DNA of 40,721 nucleotides from a virus. Each line of letters begins with the position of its first letter. The first letter of the stretch is position 1. A model generated the notes under the pieces. The model saw only the letters and a list, made by a program, of their open reading frames with translations. It was not told where the DNA came from and did no database searches. This document shows, one piece after another, positions 28,498 to 34,569 of this stretch. A program made the translations under genes and the position numbers. Location of the stretch: positions 1 through 40,721 of the IMG/VR virus record IMGVR_UViG_3300029503_000002; one strand, written 5' to 3'.

Positions 28498-29634
28498 ATG
28501 TCAAAGAAGCTTAGCCCACCTACATGGGACGAAAAAAACAACCGATGGAAGAAAACTGCGTACTGCAACGGCATGAGCAAGACTTTTTACTCAACCAAAC
28601 GCGGTGCCACCAGCGCCGAGCGGGAGATCACCGCTGCCATCAATCAGTGGAAGGATAAAATAGAGGGGCTGACCGGCGCCGGACACCTGACGCCGATGTC
28701 ACGGGTAAAGGACGTTTATCCTGATTTTCTGGCAGACTTGCAGGCGAGGACAAGCCAAGGCCATTGGGAGCCGATGGCAAGGCGGTTTAAAAACTGGATT
28801 CTTCCTGTTATAGGAACAAGGTCAATCATAGATTTGAACGACGCTGTACTTCAAAAAGTTATTAACCATGCTTTTAAAGATGGTGGAATATCCAAAAAAG
28901 GATTGATGAATCTTCGAGCGGACCTGTCCTCATTCGTGAAATTTTGCCGAAAAAATCAGCTGACATCATACCGCCCCGAAGATATTGACATTCCAAAAAG
29001 CGCAGAGCGATCACAGAAAAGCATCCTGCAGCCAGAGGAATTAAAAGTGCTGTTCAGTGAAGATTATGTTTCGATGTATGGAAGACCTGTATTTGAAACA
29101 TACATCTATGGCTATCGGCTGCAAGTCCTGCACGCGTTACGCCCTGGAGAGATTGGAGGGCTTCGCAAATCTGACCGAGTTGGTGATGTTGTATATATTC
29201 AGCGGTCCATCAATGTTTACGGTAAAGTAACACAAGGAAAAAACGACAACGCCATCCGGTCGATTGTCCTGTCCGATCTTGCAAAAGAATGCTGGGATAA
29301 ACAAGCGGCCCTGTCAGATGATGAACAGATGTTTCCTGATTTCGACGAATCCAAATATCGAAAGCACTTGATCTCCTACTGCAAGCAGCACAGCATATCT
29401 CAAGTGTCACCATACGAGCTGCGGCACACTTCCATATCCATCATGCAGACGCTTCCAGAAGGACTTGTAAAAGCCATTGGTGGACACTCACGGAGCATGG
29501 ATACTTTCGGAGTATACGGCCATGAGGTGCAAGGTGACAAAACCCTGACAGCTCAATTATTGCAGGAAAGATTCACAAACTTGTTGAGCAATTCCGAAAA
29601 CCAAGGTCAAAACAAGGTCAAACCTGAAAAATAG
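28498..29634 (+). CDS. int: Tyrosine integrase with an N-terminal arm-type DNA-binding domain
   Basis: C-terminal ELRHTSISIM...GGHSRSMDTFGVYGHE supplies the R-H-R-Y catalytic residues. N-terminal WDEKNNRWKKTAYCNG...FYSTKRGATSAEREI is AP2/arm-binding-like. Confidence 0.85.
   Translation: MSKKLSPPTWDEKNNRWKKTAYCNGMSKTFYSTKRGATSAEREITAAINQWKDKIEGLTGAGHLTPMSRVKDVYPDFLADLQARTSQGHWEPMARRFKNWILPVIGTRSIIDLNDAVLQKVINHAFKDGGISKKGLMNLRADLSSFVKFCRKNQLTSYRPEDIDIPKSAERSQKSILQPEELKVLFSEDYVSMYGRPVFETYIYGYRLQVLHALRPGEIGGLRKSDRVGDVVYIQRSINVYGKVTQGKNDNAIRSIVLSDLAKECWDKQAALSDDEQMFPDFDESKYRKHLISYCKQHSISQVSPYELRHTSISIMQTLPEGLVKAIGGHSRSMDTFGVYGHEVQGDKTLTAQLLQERFTNLLSNSENQGQNKVKPEK
29602..29622 (+). repeat. Two direct CAAGGTCAAA copies (candidate integrase arm-type sites, P arm), overlapping the last int codons
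   Basis: CAAGGTCAAA at 29602-29611 and 29613-29622. Confidence 0.5.
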
Positions 29635-29644
29635 CAAAAGAAAA

Positions 29645-29682
29645 ACCTCAACAAATCGCATAAACAAGCCATTTGTTGAGGT
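29645..29682. terminator. Bidirectional intrinsic terminator after int
   Basis: acctcaacaaat-14 nt loop-atttgttgaggt. A T-rich tail on the minus-strand side (TTTTTCTTTTGC) and a weaker tgtgttatt on the plus side. Confidence 0.6.
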
Positions 29683-29690
29683 TGTGTTAT

Positions 29691-29716
29691 TGGTGGAGGC
29701 GAGGGGAATTGAACCC
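29691..29716 (-). other. attP core: copy of the 3' end of a tRNA gene (T-loop, acceptor 3' strand, CCA)
   Basis: The reverse complement reads GGGTTCAATTCCCCTCGCCTCCACCA, i.e. GG-TTCAATT-CCCCT + CGCCTCC + A + CCA. The upstream sequence does not complete a T stem, so this is a fragment and not a gene. Confidence 0.6.
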
Positions 29717-29830
29717 TGTCTTATTACATTAATTAAAATCAATTGAATTAAAAATATCGCTTAACTATGCGAATTTAATAAAATAGTTTGATTTTAAAAT
29801 CAATAGTTTGCGAATATAATCAAACTAAAA

Positions 29831-29852
29831 CAAGGTCAAAAACAAGGTCAAA
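29831..29852 (+). repeat. Two further direct CAAGGTCAAA copies (candidate arm-type sites, P' arm)
   Basis: CAAGGTCAAA at 29831-29840 and 29843-29852, in the same orientation as the pair at 29602-29622, on the other side of the core. Confidence 0.5.
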
Positions 29853-29880
29853 AAGCCGCCCTCAATCAAGAGAGCGGCTT
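29845..29880 (-). terminator. Intrinsic terminator ending the accessory operon
   Basis: Minus strand aagccgc-tctcttgattgagg-gcggctt followed by TTTTTG, 4 nt after the stop of 29884-30195. Confidence 0.65.
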
Positions 29881-29883
29881 GTC

Positions 29884-30195
29884 TTATCTTGGATTGGAAT
29901 ACAGAGCAATCATGTTCTTTGCAATGCCGTATTCCTCAACATATTCTTTGTGTTCGTACTCCCAGAGTTCAAGCATAACCGGTGGAGGCGGTTCGATTGC
30001 CCTCTGCTTTTCGATCAGTTTGACAACTTCTGTATGCAGCATATCAGCGTGCCTAAGCTCATCATTTGCCATATCATAATAAGCCTTGGCAAGCGTTGGC
30101 TGCTCTGTTTTATAGTGAGTTGCCAGTTTTGCGTATTCTTTAGCGCCGGCGATTTCTTCCTTCATCTGATTCGCCATCTTTTTAATGATCCGCAT
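29884..30195 (-). CDS. Hypothetical helical protein with two ExxH motifs (ferritin-like guess)
   Basis: 103 aa with DELRH and EYEH. GGAGGTG RBS 7 nt before ATG 30195. Confidence 0.5.
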   Translation of the reverse strand: MRIIKKMANQMKEEIAGAKEYAKLATHYKTEQPTLAKAYYDMANDELRHADMLHTEVVKLIEKQRAIEPPPPVMLELWEYEHKEYVEEYGIAKNMIALYSNPR

Positions 30196-30433
30196 TTGCT
30201 AACACCTCCAGCTTGTCATATATTTTTTGAAGCATGACGTTTTGCTCGTCAAACTTTCTTCCCAGTTCTGCCAGAAGGTAGGCAGCCTGTTTGTCATTGG
30301 CTGCGCCTACATCATTCTGGCGGAGAATTTTGAGAGATTGCGCGCTCTGTTGTTCATTTTCGGTGAGGTTGCGAACTCCCAGGTAGAGCGATATAATACC
30401 CAGCAGGTCCGCAAACTCAAGACCACGGTCCAT
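30182..30433 (-). CDS. Hypothetical protein
   Basis: 83 aa. TAATG overlap with the upstream gene. Confidence 0.5.
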   Translation of the reverse strand: MDRGLEFADLLGIISLYLGVRNLTENEQQSAQSLKILRQNDVGAANDKQAAYLLAELGRKFDEQNVMLQKIYDKLEVLANADH

Positions 30434-30840
30434 TACGCTTTGGTAATGGTGGTGTAGATATTATTGACACTAGGATTGCCTGCGCTCGTGGTGACCACCA
30501 GTGTCAGCACCGAAGAGCAGTTCACCTTGACGCCGGCAGGGAATGCGATGCTTGCAGGATCGCTTGCTGTCGCAATAGCTTCGCTGCCCTGCGCAATCAG
30601 GTTTCCATCCTGATACAGGGCAAGGGTGACGTTGCCGGCGGCAGAATCGGTCACAGTTGCTCCGACTTCGATGTTATAGTATCCAGTGGAGCGCAGGTTA
30701 ATGTTGGAGCCGCTTACCTGTACGGTATATCCGCAGCCAGAACAGCCAAATCCATGCTGCGCGGTGCCTGGTGCCACTGTAGCGCCGCTAGTGAGGGTCT
30801 GAGAACTATTGTTTGCAATAAAAGCAAAAGCCTTCGCCAT
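30433..30840 (-). CDS. Beta-rich hypothetical protein, BclA-C-terminal/C1q-TNF-like by sequence style
   Basis: Start at ATG 30840 (MAKAFAFIANNSSQ) after AAAGGAG. Ala/Thr/Ser/Gly/Val-rich alternating pattern ...TGYYNIEVGATVTDSAAGNVTLALYQDGNLIAQGS...LTLVVTTSAG... Confidence 0.5.
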   Translation of the reverse strand: MAKAFAFIANNSSQTLTSGATVAPGTAQHGFGCSGCGYTVQVSGSNINLRSTGYYNIEVGATVTDSAAGNVTLALYQDGNLIAQGSEAIATASDPASIAFPAGVKVNCSSVLTLVVTTSAGNPSVNNIYTTITKA

Positions 30841-30856
30841 ATAAAAAACTCCTTTC

Positions 30857-30887
30857 AAAATAAAAGAGGGGCCCGCTGGGGTCCCTC
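30857..30887 (-). terminator. GC-rich hairpin + U tract between two accessory genes (attenuator)
   Basis: Minus strand gagggaccccagcgggcccctc followed by TTTTATTTT, directly upstream of the next gene's RBS. Confidence 0.55.
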
Positions 30888-30909
30888 CTTGTTTCCCAGC
30901 TCAGTTAGC

Positions 30910-31506
30910 TTAGTATGCACCGTTGCCGCATCCGCAGCCATAACCGCCAAAGAACGGATTGCAGGTTGTTGCGTATGTAGTAGCTGTTGGATAACGAACT
31001 ACGCCACACAGAGCGGACTGCAGCTGAAGTTGATTGATCTGATTCTGCATATCAGCCATGCGATTGCCGGTGATAGCATCCAGAATCTTCTGGGTCTGAG
31101 CGGTGGTGTTTGCGTTGATAGCAGCTGCCTGCTGAGCTACGTTGTAGTTCACGTTGTCGATGTTTCGCTCGATACCGTAGCAGCAGTCTGCCAGCTGTCT
31201 TTCCAGAGATGCAAACCGGCCGAACATGGTATAACCCATGTCGCACAGGCCTTTTGTCAGGCCGATATTCATGCTGGAAATCTGGTCAGAAATGTTGCGC
31301 ACACCAGACTTCAAATCATTGAAGCTGTTTGCGTTGCACAGATCAGCCTCAGTTACCGGATTGCATCCTCTGTTGTTTCCCCAGCCAAAGCCGCCGTTGC
31401 CAAGCAGGAACAGCAGAGCCAGGAACCACAGACCATTGCCGCCAAACATACCGTCATTGCCATCGGTTACTGCTCTGATGTCAGAGAGAGTGTAATTACC
31501 TTCCAT
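30910..31506 (-). CDS. Gly/Cys/Asn-rich hypothetical membrane protein
   Basis: Start at ATG 31506 (MEGNYTLSD) after AAAGGAG. Hydrophobic GLWFLALLFLLG flanked by Gly/Asn runs, an N/Q-rich helical middle with CC, and a C-terminal NPFFGGYGCGCGNGAY. Confidence 0.55.
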   Translation of the reverse strand: MEGNYTLSDIRAVTDGNDGMFGGNGLWFLALLFLLGNGGFGWGNNRGCNPVTEADLCNANSFNDLKSGVRNISDQISSMNIGLTKGLCDMGYTMFGRFASLERQLADCCYGIERNIDNVNYNVAQQAAAINANTTAQTQKILDAITGNRMADMQNQINQLQLQSALCGVVRYPTATTYATTCNPFFGGYGCGCGNGAY

Positions 31507-31560
31507 GGAACAATCTCCTTTCAAAAGATATTTTTATTTACAAGCCTTTTGGCTCGCAGA

Positions 31561-31839
31561 CTATTTAAGACCTAGCTGATTCATGATCTGCTGAGGGTCA
31601 ATGCCGCGTCTTTGGCATTCCTGCAAAAATACCTCTTTCGGGTTTTTGCCTTGGCACATCTGCATGATCTGCGCCACCTGCGGATTCTGCTGTGCTAACT
31701 GCATCATTGCTGCTTCTGGGTTCTTTACGCCTTTCAGCATCTGCGCCATCCGCTGGAAGCTCTGCACCATCTGTGCAGATTGATTATTCATTGGAGCTGG
31801 TGCTTGTCCGAGAATTTGATTTAATGGATTTGCCATCAT
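31561..31839 (-). CDS. Gln/Met-rich small hypothetical protein
   Basis: 92 aa with an AAAGGTG RBS. Overlaps the upstream ORF by 56 nt. Confidence 0.45.
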   Translation of the reverse strand: MMANPLNQILGQAPAPMNNQSAQMVQSFQRMAQMLKGVKNPEAAMMQLAQQNPQVAQIMQMCQGKNPKEVFLQECQRRGIDPQQIMNQLGLK

Positions 31840-32248
31840 TGTTCACACCTTTCATTTTTTCGATCTCTTGTCTAAGAGCGTTTAAATCATCTACTGTCGC
31901 ATACTGCGGTTGTGGGGTCTCCTGTGGGTTATATGGCTCAAATTTGAAAGCCTGCACCGTTGCAAGTCCCATTTCATTTGCAGATTTGACAACAAAAACA
32001 GGGTCGTTCTGCAGCATGATCCATGCTTTCTGGCCAGGCTGGACAGACACGTTTTTTACATCTTCCAGATTGTTAACCCTGATCCAGTCCATACCCTGCG
32101 GCGCTGGCTGCTGTGGCATTTCCTGCGGCTGCTGGTATGGAGACTGGACAGGAAGAGAAGGGCTAGGTTGCGGATACTGAAATTGAGTAAAAGGCGGGTA
32201 TCCGTTTTGCATATATGGGAAATTTGGTGCTCCGAACATTGTTGACAC
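31784..32248 (-). CDS. Hypothetical protein with a Pro/Gln/Tyr-rich N-terminal low-complexity region
   Basis: 154 aa with a GGAGGTG RBS. First gene after the leader. Confidence 0.5.
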   Translation of the reverse strand: MSTMFGAPNFPYMQNGYPPFTQFQYPQPSPSLPVQSPYQQPQEMPQQPAPQGMDWIRVNNLEDVKNVSVQPGQKAWIMLQNDPVFVVKSANEMGLATVQAFKFEPYNPQETPQPQYATVDDLNALRQEIEKMKGVNNDGKSIKSNSRTSTSSNE

Positions 32249-32260
32249 CTCCGAGAATTC

Positions 32261-32322
32261 AAAAATAAAAGGCCAGATATGAGGCGCGGTGTGGAACGCC
32301 TCACACCCGACCTATTGGCTTT
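32261..32322 (-). terminator. Long interrupted hairpin + U tract in the 5' leader of the accessory operon (candidate attenuator/antitermination target)
   Basis: Upper stem tgaggcg/cgcctca (32280-32286 / 32297-32303). Lower stem aaaggcca/tggcttt. TTTTATTTTT follows on the minus strand, and the RBS lies about 15 nt further downstream. Confidence 0.4.
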
Positions 32323-32371
32323 ATTATGCGGTTTTTCTTCACTTTCCTACAGTGAACAATCAGGTATTTTC

Positions 32372-32414
32372 TGAGGTAAATTCAAGGTATCTTTGAGGGT
32401 AAAAATGAGGTAAA
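32372..32414. repeat. Three copies of TGAGG(G)TAAA
   Basis: TGAGGTAAA at 32372, TGAGGGTAAA at 32394 and TGAGGTAAA at 32406. AGGTAT occurs twice nearby. Confidence 0.5.
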
Positions 32415-32464
32415 AAAATACCCCATACCAGAGCGGCAAGCATCTGATACAGGGCAAAAAGAGC

Positions 32465-32505
32465 ATAAAAAAAGACCATCCTTCTAAATCAGAAAGATGG
32501 TCTTT
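32465..32505 (-). terminator. Strong intrinsic terminator overlapping the stop codon of the regulator gene
   Basis: Minus strand aaagaccatc-tttctgatttagaag-gatggtcttt followed by TTTTTATG. Confidence 0.7.
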
Positions 32506-32909
32506 ACTTGTATTTGTAAATATTCAATTATCTTTTGCTGACGTTCAATGAATCCAGTATCCTTCCATACATCTGCACACTTGTCCAGCGCGTCCCTCTC
32601 CCAGTTCTTGATCGAATCAAGACAAGGTTGATATCGGTCAATGGCATCTTGTAAAGGAATGGAAAGCATCTGTGCATAACAGTAAGGGAAGCGTTCTACT
32701 GTTTCATCCTGCGTCAGTCCGTGCAAGTATCGCAGCTGCATCACAAGTTGTTCCTTTTCCGAAAATGAGATATAAGAAAAGGCCAGCACTTTCGCCGGCC
32801 TTGAATTACATCTTTTGAGCATTGCGCGCACATCATCTCGATTCACGCGATCACCTACTTTTTGCGGGAAGGCTTTTTCTGTCTTCCAGTACCATGGCAT
32901 ACATTGCAA
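32484..32909 (-). CDS. Small sigma-region-4/LuxR-like HTH protein (candidate regulator of the accessory operon)
   Basis: SEKEQLVMQLRYLHGLTQDETVERF resembles a region-4 HTH. The start is uncertain: TTG 32909, ATG 32900, or GTG 32846 after GGTGA. Confidence 0.45.
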   Translation of the reverse strand: MQCMPWYWKTEKAFPQKVGDRVNRDDVRAMLKRCNSRPAKVLAFSYISFSEKEQLVMQLRYLHGLTQDETVERFPYCYAQMLSIPLQDAIDRYQPCLDSIKNWERDALDKCADVWKDTGFIERQQKIIEYLQIQVKTIFLI

Positions 32910-32985
32910 ATCATGGTATCATCGTTAGATGCCGTTTTTCTTTTTCTTGTGCGTGTGACAGTAACTGTTTGTGTTGCTCTTGCCA

Positions 32986-33357
32986 TTAACTATTACCTCC
33001 CTGAGGGTTTGTCCCTTGAGGTTCAGTTTTTTCTGTCCCTTCATAATGAGTTGCAGAATCTTTATACTGATTTCCCTCAACATTGTTGATTTCTGCGCTG
33101 TCACCTTCTACGGTTTGAGTAGTAGTGGTTGTTGTCTCATACTCCCACTGGCTTTCGTACCAAAGGAAAGCACCAACAATAATTAAGTTGGCAATAATGG
33201 ATGCAATCAGTACAATCCACATTCTCTTGAAATATCTCTCATACTGCTGCGATACGTCTGCTAAAATTCTGGCAACCATAACGCTCTGTTTCATTGTATC
33301 ATTTTCGTTTTCCAGTTCCTTTGTGAGCTTGTCTTTATTTGTCTCTTTATTATCCAC
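32986..33357 (-). CDS. Single-pass membrane protein of the lysis region
   Basis: 123 aa. TM segment WIVLIASIIANLIIVGAFLW, a Thr run and an acidic tail. Confidence 0.5.
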   Translation of the reverse strand: MDNKETNKDKLTKELENENDTMKQSVMVARILADVSQQYERYFKRMWIVLIASIIANLIIVGAFLWYESQWEYETTTTTTQTVEGDSAEINNVEGNQYKDSATHYEGTEKTEPQGTNPQGGNS

Positions 33358-33369
33358 ACCGATTCTCCT

Positions 33370-33690
33370 TTATTTTATGATAAGGGTCATAAATGAGCCG
33401 ACTAAAGCACCGACAACAGCAGTAATGGAAGATTTTACAACCGCATCCCAGTTTTTAGCCGGGGCACTGGAAAGCTGCAAAACCAACTGGTCAACCTTTT
33501 GCTCAATCTTCTCAACCTTTTCCAAGGTCGTGCTGATCTTCTCAAAGTTAATTGCCTTACCTTGCTTGAGTTCGTTGATGTCATGGAACATTTCTGAATG
33601 GGTGTCAGAATTGTGCTTCATGTCCTGCTCAAGCCTTTCAACGCGGGATAACAGCGGGCAGTTGTTGCAATTACATTCTGCCATAGGCAA
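33370..33690 (-). CDS. XhlA-like (haemolysin XhlA family) lysis accessory protein
   Basis: 106 aa, coiled coil plus a C-terminal TM segment (ITAVVGALVGSFMTLII), in a PBSX-like position. Confidence 0.6.
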   Translation of the reverse strand: MPMAECNCNNCPLLSRVERLEQDMKHNSDTHSEMFHDINELKQGKAINFEKISTTLEKVEKIEQKVDQLVLQLSSAPAKNWDAVVKSSITAVVGALVGSFMTLIIK

Positions 33691-33696
33691 TTCACC

Positions 33697-34188
33697 TTAC
33701 TTTTTAAAATAGTCTTTGATAGCCTCACAGACCGCCTGTGCAACGCCTTCTTTTTTTGGAACAAATAGGTGCAGCATCGGAGACTTGTCCTGATAGAACC
33801 ATGGAATGTCTTTGACTTCTTCGAGAGGAATTTCCACTGCACCAAGGAAAGATGGGTCAATTCCAATCATCTTGAGGTGATGTTTATAGAAGCCCTGAGC
33901 CTTGCGGCTTTCCTCATAGTCTCGTTTGACTTCATGTCCCAAACGGTCGCCGAGAAGTCCCTGAACCCTTGTGAGTTTTACCTTGCACTGTGCTGCTTCC
34001 TCAACAAACAGGGTATACACAGGTTTTTCTTCTGAAATGCCGTAATATGCAGCATAAGAGTTTGGAACGTCCAGAAGAACTACATTGTTAAAGTTTTCGG
34101 CTTTGAGTACTTCCACAATATTCTTTGCGGTCTGATTATCGCCAACGATCATTACTTTTTTGTTGCCGTAAAATGCGTTCAGTGCCAT
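33697..34188 (-). CDS. Hypothetical alpha/beta protein
   Basis: 163 aa. KKVMIVGDNQTAKNIVEVLK is Rossmann/flavodoxin-like. No lysis-related features. Confidence 0.5.
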   Translation of the reverse strand: MALNAFYGNKKVMIVGDNQTAKNIVEVLKAENFNNVVLLDVPNSYAAYYGISEEKPVYTLFVEEAAQCKVKLTRVQGLLGDRLGHEVKRDYEESRKAQGFYKHHLKMIGIDPSFLGAVEIPLEEVKDIPWFYQDKSPMLHLFVPKKEGVAQAVCEAIKDYFKK

Positions 34189-34218
34189 GTTGTTACCTCC
34201 ATTATATCATTTTGTTTC

Positions 34219-34569
34219 TTAAAAACCAACCGGCTGGCTGATTTTTTCTTCATGATCTAATCCCAATTCTTTCCATGCGTTTTCAATTGCAATCTGGATG
34301 GTATCAGTATCAATTTTAATTCCATGAGCAGCACACTGTTTTTCAATGTACTTTTTGGCTTCTTCAAATTTTTTGGCTCCGTTACCAGCACCAATTAGGA
34401 TTTCTGCCGCCTGTACACCTGCCAGTGCGTAGTTTTTAATGGTTTCCCACTGTTCATTGGTGACTTTGCTCTTGACCCATGTTCTAAGAGCTGGAATAAC
34501 AATACCTGTCATGATAAGCCCTACCAGACCAATAGCAGACACAATGATATCGGTAATGTCAATGTTCAT
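34219..34569 (-). CDS. LL-H-family holin-like protein
   Basis: 116 aa. N-terminal TM IIVSAIGLVGLIMTGIVIPAL followed by a soluble helical domain. Confidence 0.55.
   Translation of the reverse strand: MNIDITDIIVSAIGLVGLIMTGIVIPALRTWVKSKVTNEQWETIKNYALAGVQAAEILIGAGNGAKKFEEAKKYIEKQCAAHGIKIDTDTIQIAIENAWKELGLDHEEKISQPVGF

Follow-up and report, generated by a model that had tools for sequence, protein, structure and literature searches.

The question raised by this locus is what a temperate phage does with six small, tightly packed genes, o1 to o6 in order of transcription, that lie between its lysis cassette and its attachment site. The locus is found in IMG/VR virus record IMGVR_UViG_3300029503_000002, positions 1 to 40,721 of which make up the window, i.e. 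the whole stretch of DNA analyzed here (40,721 nucleotides), and a first-pass annotation, made from the DNA letters alone, had singled it out as a self-contained accessory operon with its own helix-turn-helix (HTH) regulator that might build or decorate a host cell or spore surface structure, with an exclusion or defence function as the alternative. The best guess is now that it represents one copy of a mobile accessory module, found in phages whose hosts are strict gut anaerobes, and that the module serves the phage and not host conversion. As was suspected from the start, no named family of virion, lysis, replication, or defence proteins includes any of the six (Pfam, PHROGs, NCBIfam, and PADLOC). 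Taken one by one, the folds have precedents (ferritin-like helices, a BclA-C/C1q jelly roll, and a sigma-region-4 (r4)/GerE HTH) and the ensemble matches no described system; because it is unmatched in Pfam, PHROGs, NCBIfam, PADLOC, the PDB, and the searched literature, it is regarded as a real, widespread module of an undescribed kind. The PHROGs of the module are all annotated as of unknown function, and the family of o3, the anchor protein, is without a Pfam model. The open reading frames (ORFs) first proposed, the six and that of the regulator, are all present on the minus strand, with start codons slightly corrected, and are as follows.

32484–32909, minus strand: sigma-region-4-like HTH gene, the last gene of the lysis/late unit, longest ORF 141 amino acids (aa)
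31784–32239, minus strand: o1, 151 aa, matching phrog_21718
31561–31839, minus strand: o2, helical and rich in Gln and Met, with NPQ and GIDP motifs
30910–31506, minus strand: o3, 198 aa, phrog_16490
30433–30840, minus strand: o4, 135 aa, a stand-alone jelly roll of the BclA-C/C1q-TNF type
30182–30433, minus strand: o5, 83 aa, with a hydrophobic helix at the N terminus and a coiled coil of polar character (from the alignment)
29884–30195, minus strand: o6, 103 aa, helical and half-ferritin-like, E14, E46, and H49 being invariant

Comparison with other phages backs the operon picture, as the gene set recurs in hundreds of gut phages, its order being fixed across the loci compared. Relatives of o3 were collected from a viral-contig scan (144) and from 185,579 species genomes (34 more), and the components were counted by iterated profile searches on 115 fetched loci. 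Besides o3 (115/115), o1 is present at 105 of the loci, o2 at 95, and o4 at 87, with an unrelated Cys-rich β protein, in which hhalign finds no homology to o4, at the o4 position in a further 17/115. The terminal helical gene is more variable: fer189 was found at 57 loci, o6 at 29, and DUF7841, which takes the position of o6 in other modules, at 21, and hhalign detects no homology among the three families. The short o5, which is hard to detect, was recovered at 26/115. The conserved module thus reads o1-o2-o3, then o4 or the Cys-rich β protein, plus a helical or ferritin-like protein. It usually comes directly after lysis genes, and endolysin and holin domains are over-represented in the two genes that precede it; downstream, profile searches identified an integrase in 28 loci, and the large ORFs found there in other loci are taken here to be packaging genes. 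In many diverse loci, a GC hairpin with a U-run precedes o1; an extended −10-like element comes immediately after the hairpin, then a short leader, and phased short repeats of differing sequence are often visible by eye upstream of o1 in other loci. The −10-like elements, again by eye, resemble housekeeping extended −10 boxes and not those of sigma-K or sigma-E.

The anchor family is large and crosses host phyla. It has more than 4800 members in the large protein collection, and a single-sequence search of 1.84 billion representatives found 747 clusters at 50% identity; the wider family search used the CPD1-type Clostridium perfringens homologue as its query. The sole named close homologue of the window o3 comes from a Negativibacillus metagenome-assembled genome. 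The family occurs in six cultured C. perfringens phages, one of which, CPD1, carries o1, o2, o3, the Cys-rich β protein, a short o5-like ORF, and a 175-aa helical protein, and the module is also present in the genome of Ruminococcus flavefaciens FD-1. Most Firmicute hosts are Clostridia, and hosts are mostly monoderm. The family is not restricted to phages of endospore formers, being found in many crAss-like phages, in csAssE-Sib, in the cultured Bacteroides uniformis phage C3_41T2LP, and, as the anchor alone, in viruses assigned to Methanomassiliicoccales. A Bacteroides-phage protein matches the o3 PHROG, phrog_16490, at E 9.5e-47, and DUF7841 proteins lie a few genes downstream of the o3 homologue in Bacteroides/crAss-type phages (E 5e-16 and 4e-9). 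Sequence similarity thus supports true homology of the crAss/Bacteroides-phage modules at the level of the module, and hhalign finds no homology between the crAss-type and the Firmicute-type accessory proteins. Among 72,556 plasmids the family is absent except from one 861-kb replicon, and all of its sources are gut, faecal, or rumen samples.

The module is among the more widespread uncharacterized multi-gene modules of gut phages, and its carriers include crAss-like phages, which rank with the most abundant viruses of the human gut. A function common to phages of Clostridia, of Bacteroides, and possibly of methanogens would point to a general need of phage life in the anaerobic gut that is missing from current models. 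The question is directly testable because cultured carriers exist, namely the six C. perfringens phages and C3_41T2LP.

In the N-terminal part of the o3 protein (G 13%, N 12%, C-terminal end GGYGCGCGNGAY) lies a hydrophobic segment with Gly and Trp on its flanks; the protein further has a coiled coil rich in Gln and Asn, a CC(C) motif, and a Gly/Cys tail. Residue percentages computed for o1, o2, and o3 agree with the unusual compositions first noticed by reading. The family shares the invariant stretch NRMADMQNQI..LQL, and among 54 distinct DNA versions of it the synonymous sites vary freely; therefore, selection acts on the protein, and a DNA element inside o3 was rejected on the same ground. 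The description of o3 as a membrane protein fits the family, where the hydrophobic segment is strong (mean Kyte-Doolittle 13-mer 2.44 over 108 representatives), and less well for the window copy, whose segment is short (19-mer 1.33). In the same 108 representatives the C-terminal flank is the more positively charged in 76 and the N-terminal flank in 10, which weakly favours a predicted N-out/C-in topology. Two fusions proved uninformative: o1::o3 is on a 1.5-kb contig and looks like a deletion, as does tape-measure::o3, which sits in a deleted, degraded prophage (locus L126, 8001–9164), where the N terminus of the tape measure is in frame with the C-terminal half of the o3 homologue as an apparent large-deletion product.

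With its place by the lysis genes, N-terminal anchor, polar heptads, and conserved cysteines, o3 is reminiscent of spanins (Rz/Rz1) and of class I viral fusion proteins. Unlike spanins, however, it is encoded in modules whose hosts are mostly monoderm, and no lipobox or lipoprotein partner was noticed when the sequences were read, so that the pair of i-spanin and lipoprotein o-spanin that defines a two-component system is lacking from the module. In the crAss phage cr116_1 (locus L122, 2103–2447) a 114-aa gene before the holin, unannotated and resembling a unimolecular spanin, encodes an N-terminal lipobox-like MLSAC and a C-terminal transmembrane segment; because such a separate gene is present, a spanin role for o3 is disfavoured. 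As for fusion proteins, the similarity of o3 to spike heptad repeat 1 in the PDB is coiled-coil noise (spike matches at E ~0.02 to 7).

The prediction that o4 adopts a BclA-C/C1q-TNF jelly roll was borne out by modeling. Its AlphaFold2 model (predicted local distance difference test (pLDDT) 88.3, predicted template-modeling score (pTM) 0.81) is a ten-stranded jelly roll that can be superposed on the BclA C-terminal domain (CTD) or on C1q heads, and a Foldseek search of the PDB placed F-BclA, BclA, BxpB, and ExsFA first, followed by EDA and C1q (entries 9h38, 3twi, 1wck, 8d02, and 1pk6; E 2e-8 to 5e-7, template-modeling scores 0.70–0.78). The window copy falls below the gathering threshold of Pfam PF18573 BclA_C (15.4 bits versus 38), and the same model matches 14 of 20 diverse members of the o4 family at E ≤ 0.1, the best at 1.7e-9. 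Among the viral models of BFVD, the best matches are stand-alone gut-phage proteins of 135–150 aa, two of them named BclA, and fibre tips of phages and giant viruses match too. The fold is therefore that of the Bacillus exosporium proteins BclA-CTD and BxpB/ExsFA, the latter also being a stand-alone domain of ~135 aa. In contrast to BclA, o4 is phage-encoded, all β, without repeats, and has neither a collagen-like GXX stalk nor an exosporium leader; moreover, it is exchanged for the unrelated Cys-rich β protein in other modules. A link to F-ENA was rejected, there being no DUF4183 in the cassette.

The protein o6 was first described as helical with two ExxH motifs. It is helical, and the first motif (E46/H49, together with E14) is conserved, whereas the second (E79/H82) is not. 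The match to Pfam Rubrerythrin is marginal (22.9 bits, cutoff 22.8), and the o6 family profile aligns to helices A–B of bacterioferritin (E 2.2e-5) and BfrB (E 8e-5) in the PDB. Like bacterioferritin and rubrerythrin, o6 keeps E14 and E46xxH49 on two helices; unlike them, it has only 103 aa and one conserved set of metal ligands, short of the full di-iron site of a four-helix bundle (E, ExxH, E, ExxH). Half-ferritins are known, e.g. encapsulated ferritin, and a dimeric half-site is possible in o6. The divergent 189-aa protein of sister modules, fer189, aligns weakly along whole ferritins. A reading of the pair of o5 and the 189-aa protein as CotJ was rejected, since there is no CotJ match and the larger protein is divergent ferritin-like.

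The remaining proteins are less readily classified. The o1 protein (P 13%, Q 13%) runs from a disordered Pro/Gln/Tyr-rich N terminus through a small conserved α/β domain (residues 50–100, the only part with pLDDT >90 in the AlphaFold2 model) to a helix and a Lys/Ser tail, and its model has no fold neighbor in the PDB. The o2 protein (Q 21%, M 12%) shows a weak likeness to STI1/XPC-binding/ubiquilin domains, with sub-threshold matches in 8/24 relatives. In hhalign, its C-terminal motif and the N terminus of the o3 homologues from Bacteroides phages align with a probability of 62%, which hints at a partnership between o2 and o3. PDB searches with o5 gave only noise of the coiled-coil type, and sequence and profile searches of the PDB with o1, o3, o4, o5, DUF7841, and the Cys-rich β protein gave coiled-coil or chance matches only.

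The arrangement of the operon in the window is consistent with an autonomous unit. The ORFs are closely packed, with overlaps of 56 nucleotides (nt) between o1 and o2, 1 nt between o4 and o5, and 14 nt between o5 and o6; the refined ATG starts include those of o1 (32239), o3 (31506), and o4 (30840), with a ribosome-binding site of the GGAGG type before each. The signals around them are as follows.

32471–32505, minus strand: terminator hairpin T1 with a U-run, closing the regulator gene, −20.8 kcal/mol, z −5.9
32361–32412, minus strand: five TACC(T/C) direct repeats with a period of 11–12 nt, candidate sites for the regulator
32270–32313, minus strand: hairpin T2, an 18-bp GC-rich stem with a U-run, 30 nt upstream of o1, −31.0 kcal/mol, z −6.6
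30866–30887, minus strand (initially listed on the plus strand by the scan): short GC hairpin and TTTTATTTT between o3 and o4
29853–29880, minus strand: terminator T3, closing the operon, −20.4 kcal/mol, z −4.8

The folding energies of T1, T2, and T3 were reached by 0/200 shuffles, and the TACC(T/C) array is the only one in the window and occurred in 0/100 shuffles, in agreement with the early description of a leader with repeats and a second terminator-like hairpin. Rfam and tRNA scans of the window gave no match, and the leader hairpin does not correspond to any known riboswitch. The hairpin between o3 and o4, with a folding energy not above that of shuffles, is possibly an internal attenuator that lowers the dose of o4–o6. 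No convincing terminator interrupts the minus strand from the tail and lysis genes down to the regulator gene, and none lies between the lysis genes and that gene.

The regulator gene starts at ~32846 on public contigs, giving 120 aa, and the window copy matches Pfam Sigma70_r4 below the cutoff (E 2.8e-4, 20.8 bits versus 24.1) over residues 50–72. A small GerE/sigma-r4 HTH gene is found 20–330 nt upstream of o1 in at least 47/105 loci; one such relative (locus L002) passes Pfam GerE with 36.5 bits (cutoff 23.5), and the window regulator matches this family only weakly (hhalign probability 58%). With bracketing hairpins, a unique array, and a recurring regulator, the block is indeed a self-contained unit that has an HTH regulator of its own and is placed between lysis genes and attP. 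Late-gene activators of Gram-positive phages and GerE/LuxR or sigma-r4-only regulators are likewise small HTH genes directly upstream of the operon they regulate; here, however, an accessory operon is controlled and not the packaging and structural genes, and the window copy is divergent and sub-threshold. The block also resembles phage morons and lysogenic-conversion cassettes in its position between lysis genes and att, its own promoter region, and its flanking terminators, and can be classed as a moron or accessory operon by its layout, as an autonomous unit at the prophage end beside att. It differs from morons in being a conserved multi-gene module of structural-type proteins, in being found also in phages that are not temperate and elsewhere in the genome, and in a regulator that seems tied to late transcription.

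Collectively, these data are read, tentatively, as those of a self-regulated module, expressed very late, whose coiled-coil and jelly-roll proteins form a membrane-anchored assembly inside the infected cell, a reading that heads the list although it falls clearly short of an even chance. The regulator would be made with the lysis genes and would switch the operon on very late via the repeat array. Subsequently, o3 would insert in the cytoplasmic membrane by its Gly/Trp-flanked hydrophobic segment, which is possibly handled by o2, and leaderless partners would assemble on its coiled coil and Cys-rich part; no signal peptide was noticed in the partner proteins on reading their sequences. The o1 protein, of low complexity apart from a small folded domain, may be an adaptor, and the exchangeable β-sandwich subunit, here the trimer-type jelly roll of o4, would join o3. 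The resulting membrane-bound multi-protein structure would act in the terminal phase of infection, with possible roles in the envelope, in the control of lysis or release, or in masking the surface of the lysed cell.

Several findings weigh against a late membrane assembly. No function is named by any annotated homologue or family library, and nothing relevant came from literature searches on DUF7841, the PHROG identifiers of the module, or BclA and exosporium genes carried by phages. In the window, the only HTH match of the regulator is sub-threshold, the hydrophobic segment of o3 is short, and the promoter has more than one candidate (CATAAT at ~32329 or a weak −10 after T2). The topology of o3 is weakly predicted and would clash with the crAss-type fusion if o2 is cytoplasmic, and in some phages the module sits among early or replication genes and not after lysis. 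In addition, C1q-type heads are typical of virion fibre tips, as in the BFVD matches, crAss-like homologues were labeled by their depositors "spike protein/glycoprotein" or "outer capsid protein/viral fiber", and one crAss-type module protein matches phrog_473, "virion structural protein", weakly and over a coiled-coil stretch.

The last three points speak for virion decoration or an accessory fibre, the rival that survives best and is nonetheless considered unlikely. The o3 protein would provide a trimeric coiled-coil stalk and o4 or the Cys-rich β protein the distal head of a structure attached to the capsid or neck, like phi29 gp8.5 or the head fibres of crassviruses, and the genes would be an exchangeable cassette for gut adaptation. 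In cr116_1 the module lies between terS and the capsid genes, and a distribution that crosses host phyla yet comes entirely from gut, faecal, or rumen sources fits such a role. Known head-fibre homologues are lacking in most crassvirus groups, where uncharacterized proteins may fill the role (PMC10172136). A soluble fibre of a tailed phage would, however, not be expected to have a strongly hydrophobic, Trp-belted segment, structural genes seldom have a regulator of their own and terminators on both sides, and the genome position varies, at times among replication genes. The depositor labels probably derive from coiled-coil similarity, the spike matches in the PDB being in the range of noise given above. 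A literature search on C. perfringens virion proteomics yielded nothing useful.

Superinfection exclusion or receptor masking, by a membrane complex with an exchangeable head that is present in lysogens, late in infection, or both, is rather more doubtful. Such a complex would block incoming phages or keep progeny from adsorbing to debris, and a membrane anchor with an exchangeable β head, encoded at the classical lysis-attP position of such morons in temperate and non-temperate phages alike, would suit it. On the other hand, four to six structural-type proteins are far above the number in known exclusion systems, the partners are without export signals, and the high conservation of o3 across host phyla is unlike a receptor-specific function. 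The defence or exclusion alternative of the first-pass annotation gained no positive evidence, with PADLOC giving no defence match and only a ZorA coiled coil at E 0.018 (11.8 bits). A further reading, also improbable, is that phages of strict gut anaerobes, in several bacterial phyla and perhaps in archaea, have in common a very late module for a self-assembling, cysteine-cross-linkable structure of membrane-anchored coiled coils, jelly-roll heads, and ferritin-like subunits, exosporium-like in its materials; it would serve the phage, for instance by coating or aggregating progeny or the membranes of lysed cells and shielding them from oxygen or re-adsorption on the way between guts.

A cargo freed at lysis, either a membrane-active, bacteriocin-like complex or a C1q/TNF-like ligand directed against competitors or the animal host, is very improbable. 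Its placement by the lysis genes would parallel Shiga toxin and toxins of Gram-positive phages, and leaderless proteins encoded beside the lysis cassette, the fusion-peptide-like Gly-rich hydrophobic segment and heptad repeats of o3, and the gut-restricted source are in keeping with it; no toxin or immunity family was matched, however, the head subunit swaps with unrelated β proteins, and there is no link to eukaryotic receptors. Least probable of all is the proposal with which the locus was introduced, a prophage module that builds or decorates the spore coat, the exosporium, or a surface layer of the host cell: the exosporium proteins among the best matches of o4, the Cys-, Tyr-, Gly-, or Gln-rich partners, the ferritin-like partners, the GerE-type regulators of relatives, and the mostly clostridial Firmicute hosts would fit it, but a spore role is unsupported as a family function because viruses of Bacteroides and viruses assigned to archaea carry homologues (neither Bacteroides nor methanogens form spores), as do the cultured C. 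perfringens phages and R. flavefaciens FD-1 (not known to sporulate), Pfam, NCBIfam, and PDB sequence searches of the module gave no CotJ, CotY/Z, or Ena match, the −10-like elements upstream of o1 look housekeeping-like, and the regulator is apparently co-transcribed with the lysis genes.

The window itself is a complete, circularly permuted genome of ~40.7 kb of a temperate myovirus. Identical public contigs of 40.65 kb carry sheath-initiator and baseplate-J genes, two holins, an Amidase_3/SPOR endolysin, an integrase, and a CI-type repressor, and their public gene calls match the ORFs of the window in the cassette. A comparison of the window DNA with 50,697 phage records revealed trivial similarities alone. 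The attachment region next to the cassette comprises the following.

28498–29634, plus strand: integrase gene
29602–29851, no strand assigned: attP, a core resembling a tRNA/tmRNA 3′ end between two tandem TTGACCTTG pairs
29720–29691: attP core, 30 nt, like a tRNA/tmRNA 3′ end (…GGTTCAATTCCCCTCGCCTCCACCA)
29602–29621 and 29831–29851: the tandem TTGACCTTG pairs flanking the core, putative integrase arm sites

Six copies of TTGACCTTG are present in the window, where 0.5 would be expected. In an integrated copy of the phage, bacterial genes lie beyond the end formed by the cassette and att. The attP assignment is well supported, and the cassette does adjoin it, as had been proposed from its position; the probable target of integration is the 3′ end of a gene for tmRNA or a tRNA-Ala-like RNA.

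Minor observations concern the neighbors of the module. Between the lysis genes and the regulator, a 43-aa ORF (32855–32986, minus strand), called as a gene on public contigs, has a basic N terminus and a DnaJ-type CxxCxGxG zinc-finger motif (CNVCHGTG). The lysis region (32986–34569, minus strand) looks redundant: besides two holins (Phage_holin_5_2 and Holin_LLH) and an XhlA-like protein (phrog_937), it encodes a single-pass membrane protein of 123 aa, which is also found ahead of the module in 13 other loci. In CPD1 (locus L081, 5182–5805), a 207-aa ORF inserted between the o2 and o3 homologues is, by eye, a candidate HNH-type homing endonuclease, and in C3_41T2LP an annotated I-HmuI-type endonuclease lies just upstream of the o3 homologue. 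Small HExxH proteins, i.e. VOG3488/phrog_1365 and a protein of ~131–154 aa, flank the o3 block in crAss-type modules (L122, 4141–4488 and 6721–7116; L123, 7434–7898) and have no counterpart in the window. Finally, in the Methanomassiliicoccales-assigned virus vir215 (L124, 4152–5186), a reverse transcriptase, presumably part of a diversity-generating retroelement, is encoded between a tail protein gene and the o3 homologue.

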